From: Candidatus Microgenomates bacterium
GTDB lineage: Bacteria > Patescibacteriota > Microgenomatia > UBA8517
Length of the DNA: 64,000 bases
Reading direction: 5' to 3'
NCBI GenBank assembly: GCA_016784385.1
Contig: JADHUT010000001.1
Coordinates: 20,547 to 84,546, forward strand
Part shown: piece by piece, positions 2,291-58,998 of the stretch
How positions within the stretch are numbered: the first letter of the stretch is position 1
Layout: each line of letters begins with the position of its first letter
The notes under the pieces: model-generated
What the model was told of the DNA's origin: nothing
What the model saw: the letters and a program-made list of their open reading frames with translations, nothing else
Databases searched by the model: none
Translations under genes and position numbers: made by a program

Positions 2291-2354
2291 ACCTTTTTTG
2301 ATAGTGGCCGTATTCGGGCGGCCACAAAACAAAAGCGTATTTCCCTGTGGGCAG
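2291..2354 (+). repeat. direct repeat copy B, abutting/overlapping the 3' end of tRNA-Trp
   Basis: ccttttttgatagtggccgtattcgggcggccacaaaacaaaagcgtatttccctgtgggcag; contains hairpin gtggccg-cccgaata-cggccac. Confidence 0.7.
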
Positions 2355-2421
2355 GGGCGAAGGGAATCGAACCCCTATCTAGTCTTTTGGAGAGACTTAT
2401 TCTACCGTTAAACTACGCCCC
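2353..2421 (-). tRNA. trnW: tRNA-Trp (anticodon CCA)
   Basis: minus strand GGGGCGTAGTTTAACGGTAGAATAAGTCTCTCCAAAAGACTAGATAGGGGTTCGATTCCCTTCGCCCCT; cloverleaf with anticodon loop CUCCAAA; closely parallels E. coli tRNA-Trp; CCA not encoded. Confidence 0.85.
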
Positions 2422-2447
2422 TATGATTCGAATTATACCTTAAAAAG

Positions 2448-3578: not shown

Positions 3579-4337
3579 TCAATCTGAACACCATTGTTTC
3601 TTGGTGTTTAAGTATATATCATAATCGTCTCGATTTTGTTCAACAAATTTTTCCACGAAGTCTCTATTTAATGAGAAATTTGGTTTAGTGGTTACGTTAG
3701 TTTTTTTTAATCGATACTTTTTTTTTGTTCTGTTAATTCGTGCGCAATATTCTTCTAATGACTCTACAACACCTATTACTGAAAAATCTGTCCACGAAAG
3801 TGGCTTAATGTATTTTGTTTGATAGTTAGCGAGAGAGTCATCTAAAAGATAATCGGCCAGAGATAGTTTCGTTTCTATTCCAATTGCCCACTCAGGTAAA
3901 GGTCTACCTGAACTACTTCTTTGATTCACATAAAAATATTGAGAAATGGCTCGTTCTAGAGGATTTCTTATAACAGTGATTAGTTTTGCCTCAGAATATT
4001 TACCTGCAAACTCTAAAGCTTTGTGTCCGTGAATTACGCGCCATTCGTCACCAACCTCGTCAACAAGACTCTGTGGTTTTAAAGGTGGTTTAATTAATCG
4101 ATAGAATTTAATTCTATCCTCTGTACTCAGTAAAAAAGTTTTCAACTTAGACAAGATCGGAAATCTTGCTTCTAAACTTACACTTTCTGATGCATGGAAT
4201 AAACCACCTTTATCACGATAATGTAGATACACTGAATTTTGTGGAAAAGATTCTGAGAAAAAAATTCTTGTTGAATATCCCCCTGTTTTGGGAATATGTT
4301 CACTAATATACTTTGTTTGTGTTTCTTTGTTTGACAC
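3579..4337 (-). CDS. sulfotransferase family protein
   Basis: 5'-PSB-like PKTGGYST and 3'-PB-like VIRNPLERAISQY motifs typical of PAPS-dependent sulfotransferases. Confidence 0.6.
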   Translation of the reverse strand: MSNKETQTKYISEHIPKTGGYSTRIFFSESFPQNSVYLHYRDKGGLFHASESVSLEARFPILSKLKTFLLSTEDRIKFYRLIKPPLKPQSLVDEVGDEWRVIHGHKALEFAGKYSEAKLITVIRNPLERAISQYFYVNQRSSSGRPLPEWAIGIETKLSLADYLLDDSLANYQTKYIKPLSWTDFSVIGVVESLEEYCARINRTKKKYRLKKTNVTTKPNFSLNRDFVEKFVEQNRDDYDIYLNTKKQWCSD

Positions 4338-4385
4338 GGGAATTTGTTATTAATATTTGACGAATTGTATCATAAATTTTTTTTT

Positions 4386-10413: not shown

Positions 10414-11955
10414 ATGCAAAATCTTTCAAGTGTAAAAAATGACAGTTGGCTGGGATGGTTTTTGAGAGGGGTTTTAATTCTTGGAACCCTCTTTTTGTTT
10501 GTTCGTCTTTTTGAGCTGCAAATTATAAAGGGAGATTATTTTAGAAAACTGGCAGAAGGCAATAGAATTAAAAAAATAGTTATCCCCGCCGCTAGGGGCA
10601 AGATATTATCTCGTAGTGGTGAGGTTTTAACCGGCATCGATTTTGCCCATATAACAGGGTATTTGGCAGAAACCACAGAGGGAGAGGTTGGAGTAATTGA
10701 TCCAAAATGCCCCCACAAAGGTCCATACCAATTAGGTCAAATTGTAGGTCGTGGTGGACTGCAAGAATATTATAATTGCACCCTAACTGGTATTGATGGA
10801 GAAGAGTTGTGGGAAGTTGATAGCATGGGAGAGAAATTGCGATTCTTGGGTAGTCGTGATCCTGTCGCTGGAGAGAATTTAAAAACCACAATTGATTTGG
10901 AGCTACAAAGACAAATTGCAAAAAGTATGGATGAAAAGCCTGGTGCGGTTGTGGCAACAGATCTTGGTGGAGAAGTAATGGCCATCTATTCATATCCTTC
11001 TTTTGATCCCAAAAACATAGTACCCTCTTTAAAAGACGAGGATTTACCACTTTTTAACCGTGCTCTGGGTGGAATATACCACCCAGGTTCTATCTTTAAG
11101 CCTTTGATTGCAATTTCAGCGCTTGAGGAGGGTAAAATTGATAAAGACTTCAAATATACAGACAGTGGTGTCTTAACAGTAAAAACACTATATGGATCAT
11201 ATAGTTATGCAAACTGGTATTTTACTCAATATGGAGGAGTGGAAGGTGAAATTGATTTAACTAAAGCACTAGCCCGCTCAACCGATACTTTTTTTTACAA
11301 AATTGGTGAATTTGTTGGAATAAATAACCTGCTTGAATGGATGAAAAAGTTTGGGTTAACAAAACTTACAAACATTGATCTTCCTGGAGAAATTCTTTCT
11401 CTTGTCCCTTCACCTGATTGGAAATTAAAAGTAAAGGGAGAAAAATGGTTTCTGGGTAACACTTACCATTTTTCAATAGGTCAGGGAGATTTGGCATTAA
11501 CTCCAATTGGAATTCACAGAGCAAATTTAGTAGTTGCAAATGGTGGTCAACTTTGTGATCTAAAGCTGGCAGATGAGCCAAAATGCAAAAGATTGGGCAT
11601 AAAAAAAGAAAATATTGCATTGGTGCAAAGTGGAATGAATAAAGTGTGTGAGACTGGAGGAACCGGGTATACTTTTTTTGATTTTGGGCAGAAACATAAT
11701 GGCCTGCAAGTTTCTTGCAAAACTGGAACAGCTGAGACCAATGATGATGAAAAAACACATGCATGGTTTACTGTGTTTGTCCAACAGAGCCAGACGGTAA
11801 AGAAAGAAATAATGTTGACTGTGCTAGTTGAAAAATCAGGGGAAGGCTCAAAAGTTGCGGGACCAGTTGCAAGAGAAATACTAGACTTCTATTATGAAGA
11901 CCAAAAAACCACTCAGCCTACACCTGTCGTCGAGAAAGATTTAAACAATGAGTAA
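10414..11955 (+). CDS. mrdA: penicillin-binding protein 2 (transpeptidase)
   Basis: N-terminal TM anchor, PBP dimerisation and transpeptidase architecture; follows mreB. Confidence 0.8.
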   Translation: MQNLSSVKNDSWLGWFLRGVLILGTLFLFVRLFELQIIKGDYFRKLAEGNRIKKIVIPAARGKILSRSGEVLTGIDFAHITGYLAETTEGEVGVIDPKCPHKGPYQLGQIVGRGGLQEYYNCTLTGIDGEELWEVDSMGEKLRFLGSRDPVAGENLKTTIDLELQRQIAKSMDEKPGAVVATDLGGEVMAIYSYPSFDPKNIVPSLKDEDLPLFNRALGGIYHPGSIFKPLIAISALEEGKIDKDFKYTDSGVLTVKTLYGSYSYANWYFTQYGGVEGEIDLTKALARSTDTFFYKIGEFVGINNLLEWMKKFGLTKLTNIDLPGEILSLVPSPDWKLKVKGEKWFLGNTYHFSIGQGDLALTPIGIHRANLVVANGGQLCDLKLADEPKCKRLGIKKENIALVQSGMNKVCETGGTGYTFFDFGQKHNGLQVSCKTGTAETNDDEKTHAWFTVFVQQSQTVKKEIMLTVLVEKSGEGSKVAGPVAREILDFYYEDQKTTQPTPVVEKDLNNE

Positions 11956-12520
11956 TCTACAACAGAAGGACGAATTATATGTACTAGGTGAAATGCTAGA
12001 CCGGGACAAAAAGGCAGTTGCTGTTGTAGGGTCTCGTCTTATTACTCCAAGAGGAAGAAGGCTCACTACACTTTTTACAGAGGCACTAGTGGAGGCAGGT
12101 TACACAATTGTTTCAGGGCTTGCTCGTGGCGTGGACAGTGTTGCACACACTACTGCTTTGGAGAAAAAAGGAAGAACAATTGCAGTACTGGGATCTGGCA
12201 TCGATGTGATTTATCCTCCAGAGAATAAAGCTTTAGCAGAGCGTATTACTAAAAATGGAGCGTTAGTGTCGCCTTTCCCAAAAGGAACTCCACCAAGACC
12301 AGAAAACTTTTTGGCAAGAAACAAAATTGTTGTTATGCTTTCTGTTGCAGTTTTAGTGGTTGAAGGAAAAAGAAGGTCAGGTACTCTTTCAACTGCAAGC
12401 CATGCTGCAAATGAAGGAGTGGAGGTGTATGCAATCCCGGGGTCAGAAGCTACTGACTGGCTTATTAATCAAGGAGTTAATTCTGTGGCAACTCCAGAAA
12501 AATTAGTTGAAAGTTTGTAA
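11948..12520 (+). CDS. dprA: DNA processing protein DprA (Rossmann-like domain)
   Basis: AVVGSR..TPRG..GARGVDSVAH...VLGSGID pattern. Confidence 0.75.
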   Translation: MSNLQQKDELYVLGEMLDRDKKAVAVVGSRLITPRGRRLTTLFTEALVEAGYTIVSGLARGVDSVAHTTALEKKGRTIAVLGSGIDVIYPPENKALAERITKNGALVSPFPKGTPPRPENFLARNKIVVMLSVAVLVVEGKRRSGTLSTASHAANEGVEVYAIPGSEATDWLINQGVNSVATPEKLVESL

Positions 12521-13539
12521 TAGGTATTTTTGCCTTTTGCGTGTCTTTTGATTATTCTAAGTTTTATAAGCTTCCCAAAATCCAAAATTCTTGTAGCCTT
12601 TGCTCTGTCCGTTAGCCTTCTATAGTCACTGTTTTTAATGGCTCCGTATTTTTCTATATATTTTATGATGCTCTTCAAGTGTGGTTTAAGTTGAGTGTTT
12701 GGATTTTTTTGTAATTTATTTTTGTTTATATTCTTTTCAACTCTAAGTAATTCATCAATGATTCCATCAGTAAAATATTCAAGCCATTTTGTGAAATCAA
12801 CTGTATTTACTATTTCATAATAATTGCCAAATACTCCAACATTCTCAAAATATTTGGTCACATTTTGATTATAAAAGTTTTCAAATCCGAAAATATTGAA
12901 AGTATTTAGCCCCATTTTGGCTAATAGAAAGGTTGTAATTAGTCTTGTTGTTCTTCCGTTTCCGTCTGCAAAGGGGTGAATGATTACAAATTGTTTATGA
13001 AAAATTCCTGCTAAAATCAACGGGTCGATTAGTTTTTCATTTTTGTCAATAAAGTCAATTAATTTGACAACAAGACCATTGCAATCTTTCGCATCAGGAG
13101 GTAAATAGACTATTTTTTGCTCTTTTGGGTTATTGATAACAATTGGCACATTTCTTATTTTTCCAGATTGATGTTTAGGAAGCAAACTCTCAGTGACTCG
13201 TTTTTGTGTATCTAAAATTAACTCGAGACTTAATTTTACCTTTTTTCTTTTGGTTAGTTTTTCAAGTTCTATTAAAGATTTGTTGTAATTGGACACCTCT
13301 TGCTCACTGTCACGCATGTCCGAGGGTTTATTTTTTAGAATTTTTTTAACCTCTGTTAGAGGTAGGGGGTTACCTTCAATACTTGTAGATGCAAAGGAAG
13401 AAATTTCTCTTGCAGAAAGTTTCATTCTTACTAGAACTGGTTTTGAGAGTTTTTGTGAATTGAGGTTAATTATCAATGAATTTATCCTTTTTATGTTTGA
13501 TAAAAGCTTGTTTGTAATAGAGAAATTATAATTTGTCAT
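12469..13539 (-). CDS. Fic family protein (class II, with inhibitory alpha-inh motif)
   Basis: HPFADGNGRTTR Fic motif; N-terminal STSIEGN fits [ST]xxxE[GN]; start set to Met at 13539 to avoid overlap with topA. Confidence 0.75.
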   Translation of the reverse strand: MTNYNFSITNKLLSNIKRINSLIINLNSQKLSKPVLVRMKLSAREISSFASTSIEGNPLPLTEVKKILKNKPSDMRDSEQEVSNYNKSLIELEKLTKRKKVKLSLELILDTQKRVTESLLPKHQSGKIRNVPIVINNPKEQKIVYLPPDAKDCNGLVVKLIDFIDKNEKLIDPLILAGIFHKQFVIIHPFADGNGRTTRLITTFLLAKMGLNTFNIFGFENFYNQNVTKYFENVGVFGNYYEIVNTVDFTKWLEYFTDGIIDELLRVEKNINKNKLQKNPNTQLKPHLKSIIKYIEKYGAIKNSDYRRLTDRAKATRILDFGKLIKLRIIKRHAKGKNTYYKLSTNFSGVATELTP

Positions 13540-13624
13540 TAGTCTAATATTAGTCGAATAATAGTCGAATGTCAAGTGGAATTGCTTGACATGGAGTGTA
13601 AGATAGGTTGTTATTATTATACAC

Positions 13625-15649
13625 ATGAAATTAATAATCGTCGAATCACCAACAAAAGCTACTACCTTAAATAAATTTTTGGGGTCAGGGTATGATGTGG
13701 ATTCTACAAAGGGCCATATTAAAGACCTTCCCAAAAGCAAACTAAGTGTAGATGTGGAGCATGACTTTAAACCCAATTATGAAGTAGTAGAAAAACAATC
13801 TGCGATAATTAAAAATTTGCAAAAGAAAGCAAAAGAAGCAGAAGGGATTTTCATTGCAACTGACCCTGATCGTGAAGGAGAAGCAATCGCACAACATGTA
13901 TATGAGATATTGACGGAAGGAAAGAAAGATAAAATTAAGCCGGATACTATAAAAAGAATTACCTTTCATGAAATAACACAATCTGCAGTTGAGGATGCTA
14001 TTGAAAAGTCGGGTAGTGTAGATATTAATCTTGTTAATGCTCAAATTGCTAGAAGAGTACTGGATAGATTAGTGGGTTATACCCTTTCTCCGGTTTTATG
14101 GAGAAAAGTGAGAAGAGGCCTTTCTGCAGGAAGAGTTCAGTCTGTTGCAGTTAGACTTATTGTTGAAAAAGAAGAAGAGATTAAAAAGTTTAAAGCAGAA
14201 GAGTACTGGCAAATTTTTTCAGAATTGAAGGGCAATAAAAATCAATTTGTAACTGAACTGGTTAAAATTGATGGCATTAAGGCTGTTGTAAAAAACAAAA
14301 AAAATGTAGACGAAATTGTTGCTGATCTAAAAACTGCAAAATATATAGTAGCGGACATTAGAAAAAAGGAAGTTAGCAAAAAACCTTATTCACCTTTCAC
14401 AACTTCAACACTAACTCAAACCTCGGCAAGATTTTTTTCCTGGTCAGCTAAAAAAACAATGAGAATGGCACAAGGGCTTTATGAAAAGGGATTAATTACC
14501 TACCATAGAACAGATTCACACAGCCTTGCAAAGTCAGCAGTAGACAGTGCAAGAGAGTTTATAAAGAAAGAGTACGGGAGTGATTATTTGCCAGAGGGTC
14601 CAGTTGTTTACAAAACAAAAAGTAAATCTGCACAAGAAGCGCATGAAGCCATAAGAGTAACAGACGTCAAGGTAAAAACAGATCAAGTTGAAGGCAGTTC
14701 TGATGAACAAAAGCTATATGATCTTATAAGAAGAAGGTTTTTGGCTTGTCAGATGAATCCTGCTAAATATAGTGAAACCAGTATTGATGTGAGTGCTGGA
14801 AAATACATATTAAGAGTAGGTGGACAAACAATGATCTTTGATGGGTGGAGAAAACTATTCCCAACTGATGGAGAAGCAGTTATGCTACCCGAAATAGAAA
14901 AAGGGGACAAACTAGATCTAATCAAAACTTGGGGTGATCAAAAGTTCACACAACCACCAGCAAGATTTAATGAAGCCTCACTCATAAAGATGTTGGAAAA
15001 ACTAGGGATTGGAAGACCATCTACATATGCTCCTATCATTTCAACAATACAGGCTAGAAGTTACGTCGAAAAAAAGGATGCGCAGTTTTTACCGACAACA
15101 GTGGGGGTTGCTGTCACAAAATTTTTAATGGCCAATTTCATGGAAGAGTTGGAATACAACTTCACTGCAGAGATGGAAGATGATCTTGATAAAGTTGCAA
15201 CAGGCAAGTTAGATTGGACAAAAATGATGGGGAAGTTCTGGGGTCCATTTGGAAAAAAAGCAGAAAGTGTTACTAAAAACGCAGAAAGAATAAAAATTGA
15301 AACTGAAAAACTAGGTAAAAAGTGTCCAGATTGTAAAGATGGTGAGTTGGTAATTAGAGTTGGAAGATTTGGCAAGTTTATAAGCTGTTCCACTTTCCCA
15401 GAATGCAAACACACTGAAAAATTCTTGGATAAAATTGACATGATTTGCCCTGATTGTAAAAAAGGAGAAGTGATAATCAAAAAAACAAGAATAGGAAGAA
15501 GTTTCTTTGGCTGTTCACTTTATCCTGATTGTGAATTTGCCTCATGGAAAAAACCAGTGGATGGAAAGTTTGATAAAAAGAATAACCAAAATAAGAATTT
15601 TGTGAAAAAACAAGAAACGAAAGAAAATGACGTGACCAAGGAAAAGTAA
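13625..15649 (+). CDS. topA: DNA topoisomerase I
   Basis: Toprim N-term MKLIIVESPTKA, full-length topo IA, C-terminal Cys4 zinc ribbons. Confidence 0.95.
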   Translation: MKLIIVESPTKATTLNKFLGSGYDVDSTKGHIKDLPKSKLSVDVEHDFKPNYEVVEKQSAIIKNLQKKAKEAEGIFIATDPDREGEAIAQHVYEILTEGKKDKIKPDTIKRITFHEITQSAVEDAIEKSGSVDINLVNAQIARRVLDRLVGYTLSPVLWRKVRRGLSAGRVQSVAVRLIVEKEEEIKKFKAEEYWQIFSELKGNKNQFVTELVKIDGIKAVVKNKKNVDEIVADLKTAKYIVADIRKKEVSKKPYSPFTTSTLTQTSARFFSWSAKKTMRMAQGLYEKGLITYHRTDSHSLAKSAVDSAREFIKKEYGSDYLPEGPVVYKTKSKSAQEAHEAIRVTDVKVKTDQVEGSSDEQKLYDLIRRRFLACQMNPAKYSETSIDVSAGKYILRVGGQTMIFDGWRKLFPTDGEAVMLPEIEKGDKLDLIKTWGDQKFTQPPARFNEASLIKMLEKLGIGRPSTYAPIISTIQARSYVEKKDAQFLPTTVGVAVTKFLMANFMEELEYNFTAEMEDDLDKVATGKLDWTKMMGKFWGPFGKKAESVTKNAERIKIETEKLGKKCPDCKDGELVIRVGRFGKFISCSTFPECKHTEKFLDKIDMICPDCKKGEVIIKKTRIGRSFFGCSLYPDCEFASWKKPVDGKFDKKNNQNKNFVKKQETKENDVTKEK

Positions 15650-16694: not shown

Positions 16695-17129
16695 TTGATT
16701 ATGGTTAAAGTCAAGTTTCAAAAATTAAATAAAAATGCAAAGATCCCCTCGTTTGCACACATTGATGATGCAGGGTTTGACATATATACAAACAAAACCA
16801 CTGTTGTAAAAAAACTAATTCCGACCATTGTATCTACTGGAATATCTTCTGAATTTCCGGTCGGGTACTTTGTATCATTTCGTGACAAATCAGGACTAGC
16901 TGCAAAACACGGTATTCATGTAATGGGTGGAGTAATTGATGCAGGTTACAGAGGTGAATGGGGAATAATACTAGTCAATCTTGGAAAAAAGGTTTATAAA
17001 TTTGAAAAAGGAGACAAGGTAGCGCAGGCAATTGTTCACAAACTTGAAAGTGTAAAACTAACAATATCAAATTCTCTCTCCAAAACAAAAAGAGGAAAAG
17101 GCGGGTTTGGAAGTACTGGGAAAAAATAA
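16695..17129 (+). CDS. dut: dUTP diphosphatase
   Basis: AGFDIY, GVIDAGYRGE motifs. Confidence 0.9.
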   Translation: MIMVKVKFQKLNKNAKIPSFAHIDDAGFDIYTNKTTVVKKLIPTIVSTGISSEFPVGYFVSFRDKSGLAAKHGIHVMGGVIDAGYRGEWGIILVNLGKKVYKFEKGDKVAQAIVHKLESVKLTISNSLSKTKRGKGGFGSTGKK

Positions 17130-17140
17130 TTCCTCTTGAC
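17055..17140 (+). repeat. direct repeat copy 1 (86 bp): last 23 codons of dut plus 3' flank
   Basis: 80/86 identical to 17835-17920. Confidence 0.85.
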
Positions 17141-17164
17141 AGAAATACGGAATTACCGTAAAAT
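17136..17164 (+). promoter_or_regulatory. consensus sigma70 promoter TTGACA-17nt-TAAAAT driving the antitoxin gene (leaderless or very short leader)
   Basis: TTGACA 17136-17141, TAAAAT 17159-17164, ATG 17172. Confidence 0.6.
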
Positions 17165-17171
17165 AGAATTT

Positions 17172-17426
17172 ATGCAAAATGTATTTGATGAACAAATAAT
17201 TCAGCTTCAGCCCAGAGGTGTTTTTACTATTCCAAAAAAATTAAGAGAGGGTTTATTTGATGATATGGGAATTGCCAAGATAATGAGGTTGGGCAGAAAA
17301 TTGGTAATAGAACCTGTGCGAACATTACCATATCAGGCTAGAAGTTACACAGACGATGAATTGGGAGATTTTTATAAATTAGATGACAAAGAGACAAAAA
17401 AACTTAGAGCCAAAGGTATTATTTAA
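17172..17426 (+). CDS. SpoVT/AbrB-type (MazE-like) antitoxin
   Basis: QLQPRGVFTIPKKLREGL swapped-hairpin motif; overlaps downstream PIN gene by 44 nt; ATG start chosen over TTG of ORF track. Confidence 0.6.
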   Translation: MQNVFDEQIIQLQPRGVFTIPKKLREGLFDDMGIAKIMRLGRKLVIEPVRTLPYQARSYTDDELGDFYKLDDKETKKLRAKGII

Positions 17427-17832
17427 TGCTTCAGTTGTACTCTCTGGATTAAGATCTCCAAATGGTGGATCAGGTAAATTATTAGATTTTGTCGGAGAAA
17501 AGTTAATTAATGGACAAATAAGTGAAATTATTTTAGATGAGATATTAAAACATAGTCAGAAACTTGGGATACCAAAAACTACTGCACAAAAGAAATGTTT
17601 GAAATATTTTGAACCAATATTGTCTGAACCGGGTTTAAAAAAGGTAGATAAATATACAAAAAAAGTAATTGATGAGGGAGATGCTCATGTATTAGCTTCA
17701 TATGAAGAAGGAAGTTGTAATTACTTGGTCACATTAGATAAAAAACATTTGTTATCACTTAAAGGAAAAATAAAAGGATTTAATATTTATACACCTGGGG
17801 AATTAATACAATTGTTAAAAATAAAGATATGA
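17383..17832 (+). CDS. PIN-like domain protein (putative toxin; first acidic residue apparently N)
   Basis: VLFNASVV...DAHVLASYEE...YLVTLDKKHL PIN-like pattern. Confidence 0.5.
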   Translation: MTKRQKNLEPKVLFNASVVLSGLRSPNGGSGKLLDFVGEKLINGQISEIILDEILKHSQKLGIPKTTAQKKCLKYFEPILSEPGLKKVDKYTKKVIDEGDAHVLASYEEGSCNYLVTLDKKHLLSLKGKIKGFNIYTPGELIQLLKIKI

Positions 17833-17834
17833 AA

Positions 17835-17920
17835 AAACTAACAACTTCAAATTCTCTCTCCAAAATAAAAAGAGGAAAAGGTGGGTTTGGAAGTACTGGT
17901 AAAAAGTAATTCCTCTTGAC
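17835..17920 (+). repeat. direct repeat copy 2 (86 bp); would encode KKLTTSNSLSKIKRGKGGFGSTGKK with no start
   Basis: 93% identical to 17055-17140; ends at the same ttcctcttgac boundary. Confidence 0.85.
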
Positions 17921-17951: not shown

Positions 17952-19493
17952 GTGGAAAGACGAGTATTAACTGAACAAGAAGCTTGTCAGGATATTTTGA
18001 ACCAATACCTAAGTTTAGGTGAAAAATTTCAAAATTTTCCAACGGTAACTTTAAGATTAAATTCTCACACTCCCGATGGTGAGGTAATACAGGCAGAGTC
18101 AGTGGGCGCCTCAACAGCATATCAGTGTTATGCGGGAGGTGTTGCAAGGATGGTTAACCGAGATGATAAAAGATCTTTAAATATCGCACGAGATACACTC
18201 AATGCAGGACACCACACAACTAGAATGCACACACACTACACTTGGAAGATTGTTGGAGCAACGAGGTCTGTTACACACGATGTTTTTCATGCAACCCCTT
18301 TTTACAATTCAGAACAACAAAGTCAAAGATATGTAGAGGCAAGGGAGGGATTTTTTTTAGTTCCGAATGAGCTAACATCAGAACAAACAAATATTTACAA
18401 AGAAGCCGCGGACTTTGCTAATGGGTCATACTTTAGGCTGTTGGGAGATTTAAAACCTTTGGTAGAAGAAAGAGTAAGGGCCATGAATCCAGAAGGTGGA
18501 TGGAAAGTGGAAGGAACAAGATATAGACTTGGGGGCAAAATTGACAAACTAAGCCAAGAGATAGCAAGGTATGTTTTACCTTTAGCCCAGCATACTACAT
18601 ATGACCACACCCTAAACGAACTTCAATTATTAAGGCTTTTTCAAGCGAGTAACATGGAAGGATTTACTAATGAGGCGAAATATTTAATAGCATCGATGAT
18701 TGGTGAGGTTTCTAAGGTTGACCCATCAATTTTAAGAGAGTTGAGAACACCTGCAGATATTGATGAATCTGAAAATAAAGTAACTGACAAAATACAGATT
18801 GATAAATTGCTTGATGGAAAAATGTCTGCACTCCTTCAGTCTCCGGAAAATGTTGACAGAGAATTGTTAGGGAGGATGGCAAACAGTAGTTTGTTGGCAA
18901 ATGTTTTTGATGTGGGTATGTTTGATCCACAAGTTTCAAGAATGAGAGAGTTTAATTTTGCTTTTGCAACAAAACTATCTCATGCAGGAGATTCACAAAG
19001 ACAACGGCACAGAAGAACAGCCGCAGGGGTTATGCCTATTGGCCAAATTTATGACGGAGAGGCTGATTTTATAACACCCCTTGTCATCAAAGAAAATCTC
19101 CAAATAAATAGAAAATATGAAGAAATGGTGGTCAATATGTTTGAAAACGTCAAAAAGGCGCTAAATGCAGGTATCCCTAAAGAATTTGCATTACTTCTTT
19201 TACCTAACGCAATATCTGTTCGGACTATTGAGTCTGGAGATTTATTTGATTGGATACATAGATGGAAACAAAGACTTTGTTATCTAGCTCAAGAAGAAAT
19301 ATTTTTTGCTTCAGTGAATCAGGTGGAAGATGTGTTGAAAAAAATACCTGAACTTACTCCAGCTCTACAAGCTCCTTGTGGAATTCGGAAGATGCATGGA
19401 GTAAAACCAAGATGTCCAGAAGGCGAAAGATGGTGTGGAAAACCAGTTTTTAATTGGGAAATTGGAGAGTATTCTGAAAATAGACTAATATAA
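17952..19493 (+). CDS. thyX: tandem-duplicated ThyX-like protein (flavin-dependent thymidylate synthase family), divergent
   Basis: half 1 AGHHTTRMHTHYTW..YNSEQQSQRY..VLPLAQHTTY; half 2 QRQRHRRTAAG..LLLPNAISVRT..QEEI; each half resembles the ThyX core HETPFEH/RHR/YNELSGRY/VLPLNLYT. Confidence 0.55.
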   Translation: MERRVLTEQEACQDILNQYLSLGEKFQNFPTVTLRLNSHTPDGEVIQAESVGASTAYQCYAGGVARMVNRDDKRSLNIARDTLNAGHHTTRMHTHYTWKIVGATRSVTHDVFHATPFYNSEQQSQRYVEAREGFFLVPNELTSEQTNIYKEAADFANGSYFRLLGDLKPLVEERVRAMNPEGGWKVEGTRYRLGGKIDKLSQEIARYVLPLAQHTTYDHTLNELQLLRLFQASNMEGFTNEAKYLIASMIGEVSKVDPSILRELRTPADIDESENKVTDKIQIDKLLDGKMSALLQSPENVDRELLGRMANSSLLANVFDVGMFDPQVSRMREFNFAFATKLSHAGDSQRQRHRRTAAGVMPIGQIYDGEADFITPLVIKENLQINRKYEEMVVNMFENVKKALNAGIPKEFALLLLPNAISVRTIESGDLFDWIHRWKQRLCYLAQEEIFFASVNQVEDVLKKIPELTPALQAPCGIRKMHGVKPRCPEGERWCGKPVFNWEIGEYSENRLI

Positions 19494-28331: not shown

Positions 28332-28628
28332 ATGCAATTATTACCTAACATAACGACTTCTACTGAAGTGCAAAGAAATTTTAAAAAAGTAGCTAAAAGG
28401 GCCAAGTCTATAGATGACGCCTTAATTATTTTTGCTAATAATAAACCCGATCTCATCATTGCAGACTATCGTTGGTATGCACATATTGTAGGCCAGGGAA
28501 TGACTAAAAAAAGAAATAAATCTGGAATAGATGCAATTTTTGGAACTTGGAGTAAAAAAGAAGCGAATGAGTTTAACAAATATATTGATGAAGCTTTCGA
28601 ACAAATTAACCCAGAGGATTGGAAATGA
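28332..28628 (+). CDS. Phd/YefM-like antitoxin
   Basis: TSTEVQRNFKKVAKRAKSIDDALIIFANNKPDLII; overlaps vapC by 10 nt; TTGACA at 28294 and TATAAT at 28326-28331 just before ATG. Confidence 0.55.
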   Translation: MQLLPNITTSTEVQRNFKKVAKRAKSIDDALIIFANNKPDLIIADYRWYAHIVGQGMTKKRNKSGIDAIFGTWSKKEANEFNKYIDEAFEQINPEDWK

Positions 28629-29026
28629 CGAGAATTATTCTTGACACTAATGCATATAGTGAATTATGTAAAGGGAATTCCTTTGTAAAAAAAATATTCA
28701 AAAAGGCAAATACAGTATACATTCCGGCAGTTGTGCTTGGAGAACTGTTTTACGGATTCAAACGGGGTAACAAGGAAAACGATAATTTAAATTTACTAAA
28801 AATGTTTTTAGATCAAAAAGGCCTAAAGATTGTTAATATAGATGGGAAAACTGCAAGTATATATGCAGAGATAAAATTGGAGTTGACTAAAAATGGTACA
28901 CCTATTTCAGAAAATGATATTTGGATTGCTGCAAGTGCTATTGAAACTGGTTCAACCGTAATTACTTACGACAAGCACTTTTTAAAAATTCCTAAAATTA
29001 AAGTTTGGAAAAATTTGAAGAAATAA
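28619..29026 (+). CDS. vapC: PIN domain toxin VapC
   Basis: IILDTNAY...E...DIWIAASAIETGSTVITYDKHF PIN acidic residues. Confidence 0.75.
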   Translation: MEMTRIILDTNAYSELCKGNSFVKKIFKKANTVYIPAVVLGELFYGFKRGNKENDNLNLLKMFLDQKGLKIVNIDGKTASIYAEIKLELTKNGTPISENDIWIAASAIETGSTVITYDKHFLKIPKIKVWKNLKK

Positions 29027-32128: not shown

Positions 32129-32755
32129 ATGCGTATAGCAAAACCTCTTGCGTCTCTTATAGAATCGTTTGAAAGCCTTCCTGGTATTGGACCCAAGTCA
32201 GCGCAACGCCTTGCATATTATCTTCTTCATGTGCCCCAAACCTACTTGGATGATTTTTCAGAAAATTTAGTGAGACTGAAAAAAGATACAGTTCTTTGCA
32301 AAGTTTGTAAAAATGTATCAGAGACAGATCCGTGCCCTATTTGTGAAGATTCGGGCAGAGACATGTCAGTTTTATTAGTTGTTGAGCAACCACTAGATTT
32401 GATTGCTTTTGAGAGATCTGGAAAATTTAGAGGAGTTTATCATGTGCTACACGGTGCCATTAACCCATTAGATAACATAGGTCCTGATGAAATTTTTGTT
32501 GACGATCTATTTAAAAGACTTGGTGAGAAAAGTGGTATAGAAGAGGTAATAGTTGCCACAAATCCAACAATGGAGGGGGAAGCAACTGCAATGTACATAA
32601 ACAAAAAAATTACAGAATCAAACAAAAAAAATAGAATAACCGGCAAAGCCGTAAAAGTTACAAGACTTGGTATGGGAATACCAACAGGAGCTGATTTAGA
32701 GTATGCTGATGATACAACGCTAACTCAAGCCTTGGAGGGAAGAAGAGAATTGTAA
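32129..32755 (+). CDS. recR: recombination protein RecR
   Basis: HhH LPGIGPKSAQRLA, C4 zinc finger CKVCKN..CPIC, Toprim. Confidence 0.9.
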   Translation: MRIAKPLASLIESFESLPGIGPKSAQRLAYYLLHVPQTYLDDFSENLVRLKKDTVLCKVCKNVSETDPCPICEDSGRDMSVLLVVEQPLDLIAFERSGKFRGVYHVLHGAINPLDNIGPDEIFVDDLFKRLGEKSGIEEVIVATNPTMEGEATAMYINKKITESNKKNRITGKAVKVTRLGMGIPTGADLEYADDTTLTQALEGRREL

Positions 32756-35899: not shown

Positions 35900-36574
35900 A
35901 TGTATATGGCAGAAGAAACAATTAATGTTGTTGGCACCACGGCTCCAAAAGTGGACAAAAAACCAAATTTCAAAATTATGGGCGCAATTATTGGAATTGT
36001 TGTTTTGGCCATTGGGGTTATTGCTGGAATTATCTTGGTTCGCCAACAGCAAGATATAAGAGAAAAAGCCCAATGTGTTGAGCAATGTCCAGGTTCTGAT
36101 GGGGTTTTGCGAAATTGTAGTGAGCCAATAATTGATCCTGCAAATCTACAAAGTATATGTAACTTGGCTGGAAGAATAGAATATTGCGGTGGTGCACGGT
36201 TTTGTTGTCCATCTGCAGGAGGCGATTGGACCTCCAATCTATCGCTTTGTCCTCAATCTACTTCTACCCCTACAGCAACTGCCACTGCCACATCCACCGC
36301 TACTGCAACAAGCACATCTAGTGGATCTTCATCTCCTACAGCAACATCAACAAGCACATCTAGTGGATCTTCATCTCCCACAGCAACATCAACAAGCACA
36401 TCTAGTGGATCTTCATCTCCTACAGCCACCTCCACAGCAACAAGTACATCAACTTCTTCTGGTTCAACTGCAACACCATTCCCGGTTCCTGATACTGGTT
36501 CTTCACTACCTACAATTTTTGGTATGGGTGCTGGTATTTTGATAATAGTTGCATCATTGTTCCTCGCACTATGA
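35900..36574 (+). CDS. cell-surface protein: N-terminal TM, 8-Cys domain, Ser/Thr-rich tandem repeats, C-terminal hydrophobic anchor
   Basis: TSTSSGSSSPTATS x3; C-term VPDTGSSLPTIFGMGAGILIIVASLFLAL. Confidence 0.55.
   Translation: MYMAEETINVVGTTAPKVDKKPNFKIMGAIIGIVVLAIGVIAGIILVRQQQDIREKAQCVEQCPGSDGVLRNCSEPIIDPANLQSICNLAGRIEYCGGARFCCPSAGGDWTSNLSLCPQSTSTPTATATATSTATATSTSSGSSSPTATSTSTSSGSSSPTATSTSTSSGSSSPTATSTATSTSTSSGSTATPFPVPDTGSSLPTIFGMGAGILIIVASLFLAL
36309..36434 (+). repeat. 42-bp in-frame tandem repeat x3 inside the surface-protein gene
   Basis: acaagcacatctagtggatcttcatctcc(t/c)acagcaacatca repeated. Confidence 0.85.
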
Positions 36575-44222: not shown

Positions 44223-44732
44223 ATGGCTAAAAGTTTAAACAAAGTACAACTAATCGGCAACATGACTCGTGACCCTGAACTAAAGTTCACTCCAAGTGGC
44301 ACTGCAGTTTGTACCTTTTCCATAGCAACAAACAGACAATGGACAACAGATCAGGGTGAGAAAAAAGATGAAGCAGATTTTCACAGAATTGTTTCTTGGA
44401 GCAAGTTAGCAGAAATTTGTGGACAACTTCTTAAAAAAGGTCGAAAAGTATATGTTGAAGGTAGACTTCAAACAAGATCTTGGGAAGCACAAGATGGAAC
44501 AACAAAATACATGACTGAAGTGGTAATTTCAGACATGATACTTCTTGATTCAAGAGGTGGAGGAAGTACTGATGAGGCAAACTTAGGTGGAGCGCAACAA
44601 GTGGATGAATTTGATGTACCTGCTGATTTTGATGCAAAAGAAAAGCCTGTTTCTAAAGTATCTAAAAAAGATACAAAACCAAAAGGCAAAGCTGCTTCAA
44701 AAGACGAAGGAGATGAAGACATTCCTTTTTAA
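44223..44732 (+). CDS. ssb: single-stranded DNA-binding protein
   Basis: OB-fold N-term, acidic C-terminal tail DEDIPF. Confidence 0.9.
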   Translation: MAKSLNKVQLIGNMTRDPELKFTPSGTAVCTFSIATNRQWTTDQGEKKDEADFHRIVSWSKLAEICGQLLKKGRKVYVEGRLQTRSWEAQDGTTKYMTEVVISDMILLDSRGGGSTDEANLGGAQQVDEFDVPADFDAKEKPVSKVSKKDTKPKGKAASKDEGDEDIPF

Positions 44733-56497: not shown

Positions 56498-57111
56498 TAG
56501 ATTATGATATTATAAAGCTCGTGATAATTGCAAACATATTAGGAATTTTTGTTTTTCTGTTTGTCCTTTGGCACAGGTTAAGACAGGACTACCATTTTGA
56601 AAAAACCTTCACACTAGCCTTCTATACGCTGACAGGGGTTTTGATTTCGTATTTGGTTGCAAAACAGTTTTTCCCTGAGTTCTGGTTTTGGGTAGAATCC
56701 TTGGGTGTTTTAGTTGGTTTTAGTATTGGAGTAATCAGACAAAAAATGAGAGTGTATGAAAGCTTTGAGGGAGTACTGATAGGACTCTTGATTTGGCTGT
56801 CACTCACGTTTATGGCAGATTCAGTGGTTAATGCTTCTTTGGCTTCATTTTTAGCATTTTGGATAACAGTGTTTAGTGTGTTTTTGTTTTTCTTTTTGGA
56901 TGCCCACTACAGAAGATTTTCATGGTACAAGTCTGGGAGAGTTGGTTTTTCAGGTCTTGCGGTAACAGGTATATTTTTTTTGACAAGATCAGTGGTTGCA
57001 CTTTTAAATATCGCTGTGATATCCTTGGTTGGTAGTTTAGAAGGTATCTTGTCGGGGTCATTGTCTTTCATATCTTTTTTACTACTTTTTAATCTATCTC
57101 GGAAAAAATGA
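56461..57111 (+). CDS. hypothetical polytopic membrane protein
   Basis: 6 predicted TM; true start probably downstream of 56497. Confidence 0.4.
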   Translation: MQRLGLHVEFPALDYDIIKLVIIANILGIFVFLFVLWHRLRQDYHFEKTFTLAFYTLTGVLISYLVAKQFFPEFWFWVESLGVLVGFSIGVIRQKMRVYESFEGVLIGLLIWLSLTFMADSVVNASLASFLAFWITVFSVFLFFFLDAHYRRFSWYKSGRVGFSGLAVTGIFFLTRSVVALLNIAVISLVGSLEGILSGSLSFISFLLLFNLSRKK

Positions 57112-57530
57112 AAAAAACAAAAAAACAAAATAAAAAAACACCAGTAAAAACAAAAGTTCCTAAAAATCAGATTAGGTTTCCAGCAAGACTACTCCGTCCA
57201 GTTGCCATGTTTTTGAGAGAAAATTTAAATAAAATAAACATCAGAACCAAAAATATTTCTTCAGAAGATCCATTTGTAAATACAGCAAGGATACATGACA
57301 ACGCAAGCCCCGATGCAGATGCAGAAGAGCAATTCGGCCATGCAAGAGTCACAGCTATTAAAGAAGAGCTTAACAAAAAGTCAACACAAATTAAAAAAGC
57401 TTTGAAATTTATAAAAAAAGGAAAATATGGCACTTGTGAAGATTGTCAAAAACTCATAAACACAGACAGGCTTTCAGTGGTTCCAGAAGCCACCCTTTGT
57501 GTCTCCTGCGAGAAGAAGAGAGAGAAGTAG
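57108..57530 (+). CDS. dksA: DksA/TraR family C4-type zinc-finger protein
   Basis: C-terminal CEDCQKLINTDRLSVVPEATLCVSC Cys4. Confidence 0.7.
   Translation: MKKTKKQNKKTPVKTKVPKNQIRFPARLLRPVAMFLRENLNKINIRTKNISSEDPFVNTARIHDNASPDADAEEQFGHARVTAIKEELNKKSTQIKKALKFIKKGKYGTCEDCQKLINTDRLSVVPEATLCVSCEKKREK
57508..57529 (+). repeat. 22-bp direct repeat copy 1 (3' end of dksA-like gene)
   Basis: gcgagaagaagagagagaagta identical to 58233-58254. Confidence 0.8.
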
Positions 57531-57581
57531 ACACTCCTTGTATTGACAGACGTTTCCTTGCTGTAGTATAATTTCCTTACT

Positions 57582-57842
57582 ATGACATATTTAGCTACCA
57601 TAACAAGCAAAAGACAATTTACTATTCCTGTGGAAGTTTTTAAATTGGCAAAATTAAAAGCCAACCAAAAAGTTTTGGTTTCGTTAGAAGATTCGAAATT
57701 GGGGGCTTTTAAGGTGCAATCAATGAGACAATTAGTTGAGGATATGGCAGGTTCTGTTCCAGTAGCAAAAGAATACAAAGGCTTAAGTTTAAACCACATG
57801 GTTGAAAAGTCTAGAAACGATTATTATAAAAACGAAAAATGA
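57582..57842 (+). CDS. SpoVT/AbrB-type antitoxin
   Basis: TITSKRQFTIPVEVFKLAKLKANQKVLV; overlaps PIN gene by 4 nt. Confidence 0.6.
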   Translation: MTYLATITSKRQFTIPVEVFKLAKLKANQKVLVSLEDSKLGAFKVQSMRQLVEDMAGSVPVAKEYKGLSLNHMVEKSRNDYYKNEK

Positions 57843-58255
57843 TTTTTATTGATACAAACTTTTTTTTGAGATATTTTTTAGATGATGTTAATTCTCAAAG
57901 CGAAGAAGCAAAAGATCTTTTTTTACGCGCTTCTGATGGAGAATTCAAACTTTTTACTTCTACAATAGTTCTTTTTGAGGTTTATTGGGTGCTTTTAGGG
58001 CAATTTAAGAAAAATAAACAGAAAATAGGAAACGTTATGGATAAATTACTAAGCATGAAATTTATCGATATAGAAAATTCAGATCTTTTAGAGAAAGCAA
58101 TGGTGTATTACAAAACAACAAATTTGGGACTTGTTGATGTTTATAATATTGTGTATTCACGAAGTAAAAATGCTAGAGAATTTAAGACATTTGATAAGGA
58201 TTTAATCAAAAAACTTCTAAAAAATAAAGAAAGCGAGAAGAAGAGAGAGAAGTAA
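57839..58255 (+). CDS. vapC: PIN domain toxin VapC
   Basis: IFIDTNFFLRYF, E, VYNIV..D pattern; last 6 codons EKKREK encoded by the repeat. Confidence 0.75.
   Translation: MIFIDTNFFLRYFLDDVNSQSEEAKDLFLRASDGEFKLFTSTIVLFEVYWVLLGQFKKNKQKIGNVMDKLLSMKFIDIENSDLLEKAMVYYKTTNLGLVDVYNIVYSRSKNAREFKTFDKDLIKKLLKNKESEKKREK
58233..58254 (+). repeat. 22-bp direct repeat copy 2
   Basis: identical to 57508-57529. Confidence 0.8.
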
Positions 58256-58284
58256 AGTATAAATTGTAGTAAAATACACATAAT

Positions 58285-58998
58285 ATGCTAGATCCAACAA
58301 TTATTTTTGAAGATGAAAGTTTTTTTGTAGTGGATAAACCAACAGGCTGGATTAGTAATGACGCATCAACCACAACCACACAACCAGTAATCCAAACTTG
58401 GGTTCGTGAAAATTTTGATTATCCCTTGAAAGGGGACAAAGAATACAGAGATGGCCTAGTTCATAGACTAGACAAAGAAACATCTGGAATTTTGCTTGTG
58501 GCGAAGACTAAGCAGGTATTTGAGGCCCTCCAAGGCCAATTTAAAGAGAGAGTTGTTAAAAAGACATATGTAGCTTTGGTTCACGGCAAAGTAGAGCCCC
58601 AAGAGGGGGTAGTGGACCAGCCAGTAGGTAGACTTCCATGGAGAAAAGATAGGTTTGGAGTTTTACCGGGAGGGCGTGATGCAGTTACAAATTATAAAGT
58701 GGTTTCAAACCACACTGACAAAATTACAAATGAGCAATATTCTCTTTTAGAACTTACCCCCAAAACAGGCAGGACTCATCAGATTCGAATTCATGCAAAA
58801 CACATTGGTCATCCACTAGTTTCTGATACTTTCTACGCAGGCAGAAAGACCGCGCGAAAAGATAGAATGTGGTGTCCAAGGCTTTTCTTGCATGCACAGG
58901 GCATTAGTTTTGTGCATCCAACAAGTGGAGAATCAGTTTTTTTTAAATCCAAACTACCATTCGATCTGAAAACCTCTTTACAGAAGCGTGAAAAGTAG
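58285..58998 (+). CDS. RluA family pseudouridine synthase
   Basis: HRLDKETSGILLVAKT catalytic Asp motif. Confidence 0.85.
   Translation: MLDPTIIFEDESFFVVDKPTGWISNDASTTTTQPVIQTWVRENFDYPLKGDKEYRDGLVHRLDKETSGILLVAKTKQVFEALQGQFKERVVKKTYVALVHGKVEPQEGVVDQPVGRLPWRKDRFGVLPGGRDAVTNYKVVSNHTDKITNEQYSLLELTPKTGRTHQIRIHAKHIGHPLVSDTFYAGRKTARKDRMWCPRLFLHAQGISFVHPTSGESVFFKSKLPFDLKTSLQKREK

Follow-up and report, generated by a model that had tools for sequence, protein, structure and literature searches.

The 64,000-nucleotide stretch of Candidatus Microgenomates bacterium DNA analysed here (contig JADHUT010000001.1, positions 20,547 to 84,546; hereafter the window) carries a two-gene toxin-antitoxin (TA) cassette between a DksA/TraR-type zinc-finger gene (dksA) and the pseudouridine synthase gene rluA, bracketed by two exact copies of a 22-mer, GCGAGAAGAAGAGAGAGAAGTA, that ends dksA. 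We consider it highly probable that this unit of ~0.70 kb is a self-contained type II TA operon with its own promoter, flanked by a 22-nucleotide (nt) target duplication, and we are just as confident that its right end coincides with the natural end of the toxin, so that the toxin borrows seven codons and a stop. The footprint is that of a real, recurrent, recombinase-free insertion, which is not specific to TA modules and has a precedent in restriction-modification (R-M) units. The explanation taken as a whole, a TA unit with a target duplication that is moved by host recombination, stands in our judgement a little short of an even chance. The features of the locus are as follows.

57108..57530, + strand: DksA/TraR-type zinc-finger gene (C4), the target; Pfam PF01258 zf-dskA_traR, E 7e-10
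57508..57529, + strand: left 22-base-pair (bp) repeat copy, the last 7 dksA codons through the second stop base
57530..57581, + strand: left end of the inserted unit, promoter and three TCCTTG/TCCTTA repeats
57582..57842, + strand: antitoxin gene, 86 amino acids, N-terminal part probably AbrB/SpoVT/MazE-type
57839..58255, + strand: PIN-domain toxin gene (VapC-like), 138 amino acids; Pfam PF01850, E 8e-13
58233..58254, + strand: right 22-bp repeat copy, which ends the open reading frame (ORF) of the PIN toxin
58256..58284, + strand: spacer of 29 nt with the promoter-like element TTGTAGTAAAAT at 58264-58275
58285..58998, + strand: rluA, RluA-family pseudouridine synthase gene; Pfam PF00849

A sequence-only reading that preceded this analysis had proposed that a perfect 22-bp duplication of the dksA 3' end supplies the C-terminus of the toxin, and on this point it was right. 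The second copy lies 725 bp downstream of the first, both are read in the same frame (..CEKKREK-TAG in dksA, ..SEKKREK-TAA in the PIN gene), and beyond the 22-mer the identity between the two flanks breaks off sharply on either side. Even at a tolerance of 3 mismatches the window contains no further match, which is not the behaviour of a common low-complexity motif, and two matches were found in none of 100 dinucleotide shuffles. CEKKREK or a close variant is the C-terminus of nearly all DksA homologues among the 120 listed, and the Pfam match to the dksA product extends to its final residue (..CVSCEKKREK, stop TAG); NCBIfam models for DksA-like proteins and yteA matched this ORF below threshold. 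The 21 PIN homologues stop about seven residues earlier (..KKLLKEKK, ..KKLLKNKN), and the tail is present in none of them. Because the tail is native to DksA and absent from PIN homologues, the downstream 22-mer is the duplicate of the dksA end. As read from the DNA, the toxin ORF, whose native stop would be expected at the junction, continues into the dksA-tail copy: residues 1 to ~131 are native, and the last seven (SEKKREK, in the end ..NKESEKKREK) and the stop TAA come from the duplicate. The arrangement of dksA, cassette and PIN gene was seen on ~20 independently assembled contigs from several samples, and it is therefore no assembly artefact.

That a purine-rich, low-complexity tail coding for Lys, Glu and Arg arose twice independently is effectively refuted. 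Such tails are common in the genome, and RluA itself ends in ..QKREK; against coincidence stand the 22 of 22 identity, which covers synonymous positions too while orthologous dksA tails differ between lineages at 2-5 of 22 positions, the lack of a third match in the window and of matches in the shuffles, the absence of the tail from the PIN homologues, and the more extensive copy, of 45 nt, that another lineage has at this position (L097; L numbers label the loci of the comparative survey described below).

The insert between the 22-mers codes for two TA genes only, which are co-oriented, antitoxin first, with a 4-nt overlap, and the G+C content of the cassette is 29% versus 36% for the window. 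The pair had been read as an AbrB-type antitoxin and a PIN toxin. The toxin assignment is borne out by its Pfam match, and its acidic residues D5, E47, D100 and D119 are invariant or near-invariant in an alignment of 22 homologues (A1). The antitoxin assignment stands less firmly: the 86-residue protein had sub-threshold matches only (TIGR01439, E 0.029; PrlF, E 0.06-0.12), and the six best PDB matches of its family profile (A2, 41 homologues) were all AbrB/MazE, at weak E values of 0.012-0.05. On these matches, a swapped-hairpin domain of the AbrB/SpoVT/MazE type is the probable fold of the N-terminal part. Upstream lies a perfect sigma-70-type promoter (TTGACA at 57543-57548, 18 nt, TATAAT at 57567-57572; 12/12 in the promoter scan), interleaved with TCCTTG/TCCTTA repeats at 57535-57540, 57555-57560 and 57574-57579, which are putative antitoxin operators; the layout of repeats and promoter is kept in related cassettes at many sites. 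Toxicity, neutralisation by the antitoxin and autoregulation of the operon are predicted from the type of module.

Because the dksA tail was duplicated, the unit fits into a genome of almost no intergenic space without truncating dksA. On its other side, TTGTAGTAAAAT sits 9 nt ahead of the rluA ATG, and the same element precedes rluA in L097, L015 and L165; we take it as a candidate promoter of rluA. An element of the type TGnTAAAAT lies 6-9 nt ahead of the rluA start in many lineages, including L115, L116, L127 and L140, whose sites are empty, and this suggests that rluA transcripts are leaderless or near-leaderless in lineages with the element. In other lineages the rluA start overlaps the dksA stop (GTGA/ATGA).

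The site is also found empty. Among 53 loci that have both genes, rluA lies next to dksA with few exceptions, at a distance of -26 to +90 nt, and in most relatives the two abut directly or overlap. In the closest relatives (L093-L096, host proteins 82-86% identical) the cassette is absent, a single tail copy is present and the rluA ATG follows 2-3 nt after the dksA stop. The comparison with empty sites that the sequence-only reading had called for thus came out in its favour, here and likewise at dut, where L174 has a single tail and no cassette; none of the relatives has both tail copies with nothing between them, since empty loci have one tail copy only. The 29-nt spacer after the right copy, set against the 2-3 nt of the closest empty sites, looked incompatible with a simple target duplication; many relatives, however, have dksA-rluA spacers of 30-90 nt with a similar TGnTAAAAT element, and the spacer need not contradict it.

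The arrangement recurs elsewhere. When species-representative genomes were scanned with the PIN alignment, 80 loci emerged, nearly all in Patescibacteria, and an AbrB-like gene lies upstream of the PIN gene in 74 of the 80. Flanking repeats were scored by local alignment of the 435 nt upstream of the unit with a 360-nt stretch that spans the toxin stop and what follows it, at a cut-off score of at least 36; a between-locus null, with a 99th percentile of ~30, was contaminated by shared orthologous genes and was replaced by within-locus controls of the same geometry. Direct repeats at or above the cut-off flank 15 of the 77 testable AbrB-like/PIN loci, versus 0 of 550 control placements. These imperfect repeats measure 30-134 nt, with 80-93% identity and, in most cases, a spacing of 723-783 nt; they are pieces of the adjoining host sequence, with no motif common to the repeats of different sites. 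In three genomes the source is the 3' end of the FtsH gene, and elsewhere it is that of a second DksA-like gene. An ERAP1-like aminopeptidase gene and a UbiA gene, both on the opposite strand, also contribute their 3' ends, a polysaccharide flippase gene contributes its promoter and first codons, and the dUTPase gene (dut) is a further target. Insertion immediately 3' of a host gene, as proposed, is not the rule throughout this survey, in which some repeats are a downstream promoter and 5' end or the 3' end of an opposite-strand gene. The left repeat ends 52-120 nt ahead of the antitoxin ATG, and in 9 of 16 cases no more than ~12 nt separate the start of the right repeat from the toxin stop. 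Target-derived toxin tails recur as well, for example ..EFEKIVG(K/R)KK from FtsH, which P0018 and P0020, two homologues from the database, have as well. Related cassettes, 74-81% identical in DNA sequence, are found in unrelated contexts, and therefore the unit moves between sites. The cassettes of L027 (~3747-4384), a locus labelled 'Candidatus Nanoarchaeia archaeon', and of L029, from a Patescibacteria metagenome-assembled genome, are 81% identical at the DNA level with unrelated flanks, which reflects either mis-binning or transfer between very distant hosts.

A second site in the window, at the 3' end of dut, shows that the cargo may differ while the footprint stays the same. Its features are as follows.

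17029..17140, + strand: left dut-tail copy, the last 101 nt of dut (16695-17129) and 11 nt beyond
17141..17832, + strand: AbrB-like ORF (17172-17426) and PIN_3 toxin (17383-17832); Pfam PF13470, TIGR00305
17809..17939, + strand: second dut-tail copy, also the left repeat of the next insertion
17952..19493, + strand: thyX-like gene, 513 amino acids, with two Thy1 stretches; Pfam PF02511
19459..19553, + strand: third, decayed dut-tail copy, which overlaps the end of the thyX-like ORF

The sequence-only reading had described this AbrB-like/PIN_3 pair as a first cassette with the same signature, unrelated in sequence to the one at dksA, and we agree: the dut 3' end is repeated around the pair (17029-17140 versus 17809-17920; 112 nt, 85% identical), the PIN toxin is not matched by the Pfam PIN model of the dksA-site cassette, and the antitoxin has no profile matches at all. 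The second tail copy retains the reading frame of dUTPase motif V, and the PIN_3 ORF terminates inside it, just as the thyX-like ORF terminates inside the third copy. The latter is identical to the dut tail of L174 at 58 of 90 positions, a score reached by 0-1 of 580 random windows, and runs on into the native dut-tmk spacer and tmk. In L174, the closest relative and from the same sample as L093, tmk follows the single dut tail after 36 nt, and neither the TA pair nor thyX is present. Two unrelated cargoes have thus entered serially at one dut tail, each with a duplication of ~100-130 nt, to form a short array (dut-TA-dut'-thyX-dut''). Since dut-tail copies enclose the thyX-like gene just as they enclose the TA pair, the insertion process is not TA-specific; of the proposed recurrent mobilisation of small TA cassettes, the recurrence stands and the restriction to TA cassettes falls. 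The left junction of the dut-site TA pair lies inside a -35-like hexamer common to target and cassette (window 17136-17141; L174 3930-3950), native TTCCTCCTTGCAA in L174 and, in the window, TTCCTCTTGAC followed across the junction by A. Because target and cassette share this hexamer, the promoter of the dut-site cassette is a hybrid, and the hexamer possibly marks microhomology at a crossover.

None of these units brings a recognisable mobility function. No terminal inverted repeats occur at the ends of either cassette, where only weak, non-terminal AT-rich pairs were found, and there is no palindromic element at a cassette end. No integrase, tyrosine recombinase, transposase or other recombinase family was found among the genes of the 64-kb window by Pfam matches and further scans, so that the search for an integrase suggested by the sequence-only reading came back empty within the window. 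Rfam families in the window amount to six tRNAs and nothing else. A classical transposon is excluded by the lack of terminal inverted repeats and transposase and by the long, variable duplications (22-134 nt); an integron cassette by the lack of an attC-like palindrome and of an integrase in the window and by repeats that are host gene tails; and an element-encoded integrase by an insert that consists of two TA genes alone. No relatives of the PIN family occur in viral contigs, and a phage vehicle is therefore without support.

A recombinase acting in trans is a different matter: the tail copies could be the attL and attR of a non-autonomous element, such as a cis-mobilisable element or mobilisable island, with the enzyme encoded elsewhere in the genome, on a phage or on a plasmid. 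Integration at a gene 3' end that restores the gene, together with tandem accretion of the kind seen at dut, is a classic trait of integrase-driven islands, the left junction is identical in nine lineages at dksA, and a third repeat pair in the window adjoins the tRNA-Trp gene. We nevertheless judge this explanation improbable, because the repeats of different sites are unrelated and share no core (22-134 nt, a five-fold spread in length, and 80-93% identical) and no recombinase is present in the cassette or among the window genes. Viral contigs hold no cassette relative, and it would be surprising for one enzyme to act on dksA, dut, ftsH, ubiA and the remaining sites alike.

We tentatively favour, at rather less than an even chance, that the cassette was moved by host recombination and not by an enzyme of its own, as in a Campbell-type insertion-duplication. 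A cassette copy still carrying a short piece of a neighbouring gene tail, possibly a circle released by recombination between flanking repeats, would recombine by a single crossover with the resident conserved tail, and the crossover would re-create one repeat on each side of the cassette. The predicted junction of such a circle, or of a tandem, reads ...AATAAAGAAAGCGAGAAGAAGAGAGAGAAGTAGACACTCCTTGTATTGACAG. Recombination between the repeats would either excise the unit precisely and restore the empty site, with the dksA tail joined straight to AGTATAAATTGTAGTAAAAT, or homogenise both copies, and homogenisation through the repeats is our proposed reason for the identical 22-mers. Post-segregational killing is an established retention force of TA systems, and after arrival it would favour retention of the pair. 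In this scheme we infer the circle, the crossover and the part played by competence and RecA.

The main competitor is a de novo target duplication, in which a linear or circular cassette would be captured between two nicks, 20-130 nt from each other, or through a double template switch during replication; fill-in would duplicate the interval, the compact genome would keep only those events that spare essential flanks, and the copies would diverge later. We regard it as possible but unlikely. It fits repeats that are free of motifs and variable in length, like those of the published R-M cases, and whose source may be a promoter or either end of a gene, on one strand or the other; it also fits the two 22-mers of the window, which are identical to each other and differ at ~4 of 22 sites from the tails of relatives, as if both had been copied from the resident sequence, and it accounts for the arrival of 74-81% identical cassettes in unrelated contexts. 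Such long, variable staggers, however, match no bacterial enzyme that we know of. The 64 differences between repeat copies fall on codon positions 1, 2 and 3 of the functional gene as 14, 12 and 38, and this third-position excess suggests that one copy came from a diverged functional allele. Movement by host recombination is favoured over de novo duplication because this synonymous-position excess is larger than expected from one constrained and one decaying copy, and because the same junctions are reused, by nine lineages at dksA and by two cargoes at dut, which under de novo duplication would require a hotspot. It is further favoured by the alternation of filled and empty sites within one clade, by the concerted evolution of the two 22-mers, by the partial incongruence of the cassette tree with the host tree, by the DprA, RecR and SSB genes in the window, and by the fact that the published R-M cases are mostly from naturally competent species (PMC2853133).

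Several points weigh against movement by host recombination. At p ~0.01, calculated on a rough expectation, the excess at third positions is modest; the cassette was seen neither as a circle nor in excised form, and there is no filled/empty polymorphism at the strain level, all ~20 contigs with an identical DksA carrying the cassette; contigs that encode exactly the DksA or PIN protein of the window without the cassette, or with the cassette relocated, were likewise not found. For a crossover by RecA-type recombination, 22 nt marks the lower limit; the scheme leaves unexplained how a cassette first reaches a new site, where homology is lacking; and the very tight ends of the unit look more like those of a defined mobile unit than the product of random circularisation. 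In L179 and L117 there is no right-hand dksA-tail copy, and the toxin stop overlaps the rluA start. Chance survival of a perfect 22-mer in an old insertion also remains conceivable, with a probability of roughly 0.02-0.05, a value that follows from the variation of the tail at 2-5 of 22 positions among lineages.

The tight ends might instead be read as the work of the cassette itself, with an operator-bound AbrB-like/PIN complex marking the left end and the PIN nuclease nicking DNA to leave a long duplication. The ends of the unit do coincide with the first operator-like repeat and the toxin stop, the catalytic acidic residues are intact, and PIN domains are structurally related to flap nucleases. 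The same signature, however, surrounds the thyX-like cargo, which has no nuclease, and is common to two PIN families, neither of which is recognised by the Pfam model of the other; the third PIN pair of the window lacks flanking repeats, and the characterised PIN toxins of the VapC type are RNases. We hold self-mobilisation to be very improbable.

The history of the dksA site bears on how the repeats were kept. Carriers of the cassette (the window, L097, L013-L015, L117/119, L179, L180 and L110) belong to one clade, interspersed with empty sites, and the left junction common to nine cassette lineages consists of the stop codon, 0-7 nt and then TCCTTGTnTTGACA; because of this shared junction the cassette at this site is probably old. 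The right side has fared differently. In L097 the cassette is followed by the 45-nt, diverged dksA-tail copy, with a 1-nt deletion, and then by an extra ORF; L015 has a short tail remnant only, and no significant right-hand dksA-tail copy was found in the same-site relatives L013, L014, L179, L180 and L117. The toxin tail KEEKKEK of L180 was considered as a dksA-tail copy and rejected, since it aligns to the dksA tail of L180 at background level only. Divergence of cassette and host roughly tracks in L179 (63-68% versus 66-69%) and does not in L097 (48-50% versus 72-79%). All in all, the cassette probably entered this site of the clade once, long ago, and has since undergone precise loss several times over, replacement in some cases and erosion of the right copy. 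The perfect 22-mer of the window more likely stems from recent homogenisation, by gene conversion or by excision and re-integration via the repeat, or from a recent re-insertion, than from luck or from a fresh first insertion. Further unrelated ORFs lie 3' of the TA pair at the dksA-rluA junction of L097 (3225-3506, minus strand), L013 (4400-5398) and L014 (4397-4690), among them a 93-amino-acid ORF without a Pfam match and a membrane-protein gene of ~1 kb; with such extra ORFs in several lineages, the junction behaves as a hotspot for accessory genes.

The claim that the mechanism had not been described has to be withdrawn in view of two precedents. Insertion with long target duplication around R-M units was originally reported by Nobusato et al. 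(2000, Gene 259:99), was extended by Furuta, Abe & Kobayashi in 2010 (PMC2853133) and has been reviewed (PMC3874152); the mechanism was tentatively ascribed to DNA cutting by the restriction enzyme. The repeats around R-M units are 30-400 bp long, may extend over the 3' end of the adjacent gene and may give rise to gene fusions (PMC2853133). The likeness is close: a small selfish 'addiction' gene unit without transposase or integrase is flanked by direct repeats that match one copy in an empty-site relative, are variable and often imperfect, overlap neighbouring 3' ends and fuse genes at the junction. The differences lie in the cargo, which is here a type II TA pair with an RNase-type PIN toxin and once a thyX-like gene, in the host, an ultra-compact Patescibacteria genome, and in the serial insertions at one tail, which form a short array. 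Because the cargo is an RNase-type toxin pair or a thyX-like gene, an explanation by restriction-enzyme breakage cannot apply. The 22-bp repeat at dksA is shorter than the cut-off of that study, which counted duplications of >30 bp (PMC2853133), whereas the dut-site cassette (112 nt), L097 (45 nt) and 13 related loci (30-134 nt) come up to it. The second precedent is a chromosomal ParE/ParD pair of Microcystis aeruginosa, directly 3' of the MaOC1 orthocaspase gene, with identical 152-bp direct repeats on both sides (PMC7935541). Those repeats start 14 bp past the stop codon and contain internal inverted repeats, and no target duplication, empty site or recurrence was reported for them (PMC7935541). 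In the literature covered, which is incomplete, this footprint is described neither for vapBC-type cassettes nor for Patescibacteria.

Other known systems share parts of the picture. As in VapBC-type modules, two small overlapping genes with the antitoxin first, the PIN acidic tetrad, a promoter set in short repeats suited to autoregulation and a patchy, mobile distribution are seen; the module itself is ordinary, apart from the sub-threshold matches of the antitoxin to AbrB models and the foreign seven-residue tail of the toxin. Integrase-driven islands and cis-mobilisable elements have direct repeats at gene 3' ends, a preserved target and tandem accretion in common with the present units; these units, in contrast, have no integrase in or near them, no conserved core and many unrelated targets for one cassette family. 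Campbell-type insertion-duplication, in which a circle with short homology enters by a single crossover and comes to lie between two copies, one partly derived from the donor, yields the same structure; it is a laboratory tool for naturally transformable bacteria and not a known natural route for TA modules, and the natural circle would here be hypothetical. Integron cassettes, such as the TA cassettes of the Vibrio superintegron, and the XerC/D pdif modules of Acinetobacter plasmids are similar in being minimal or promoter-poor, of similar size, often TA pairs and set in arrays; unlike the units described here, which use pieces of a neighbouring host gene, they have dedicated sites (attC or pdif) for IntI or XerCD.

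Some further features of the window touch on these subjects. A third TA pair, a 98-amino-acid ORF and a 135-amino-acid PIN toxin (28332-29026; Pfam PF01850, E 2e-19), lies between proS and a HIT-family gene; NCBIfam VapC-like models matched its toxin below cut-off, and no direct repeat above background flanks it. A further repeat pair, 1624-1769 and 2206-2354, is ~146 nt long and ~72% identical with indels, its copies ~582 nt apart; it ends at the 3' end of the tRNA-Trp gene (2348-2423, minus strand) and includes the 3' end of a 76-amino-acid coiled-coil-like ORF (2012-2242). The stretch 1770-1900 between the copies has 49% G+C against 36% for the window and matches nothing in Rfam or Pfam. 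This pair could be a third insertion with duplication or a partial tandem duplication. The window also holds genes for DprA (11948-12520), topoisomerase I (13625-15649), RecR (32129-32755) and SSB (44223-44732); the predicted DprA is consistent with natural transformation in the lineage, and a Fic-domain gene (~12469-13776, minus strand) adjoins dprA. Within the ORF at 35900-36574, three tandem units of 42 nt (36250-36417) code for a Ser/Thr/Ala-rich segment.

How small selfish or defence gene pairs enter genomes without a mobility gene is still unexplained, and the R-M precedent came without a mechanism. Because the same footprint is found at an RNase-type TA family and at a thyX-like gene, we argue that the process is host-driven and independent of the cargo. 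The present case illustrates how essential genes and downstream promoters survive such an insertion and how inserted ORFs acquire new C-termini, and, with so many independent events on record in public metagenomes, the mechanism is open to comparative testing. It is distinctly unlikely, in our estimate, that Patescibacteria own a general, recombinase-free capture of small cassettes at the ends of housekeeping genes that builds arrays, or, in a stronger version, that the TA unit itself directs the event. If it were so, the system would be a functional counterpart of the integron, with fragments of host genes as its attachment sites, and it would offer a mechanistic handle on 'insertion with long target duplication', which has gone unexplained for 25 years.

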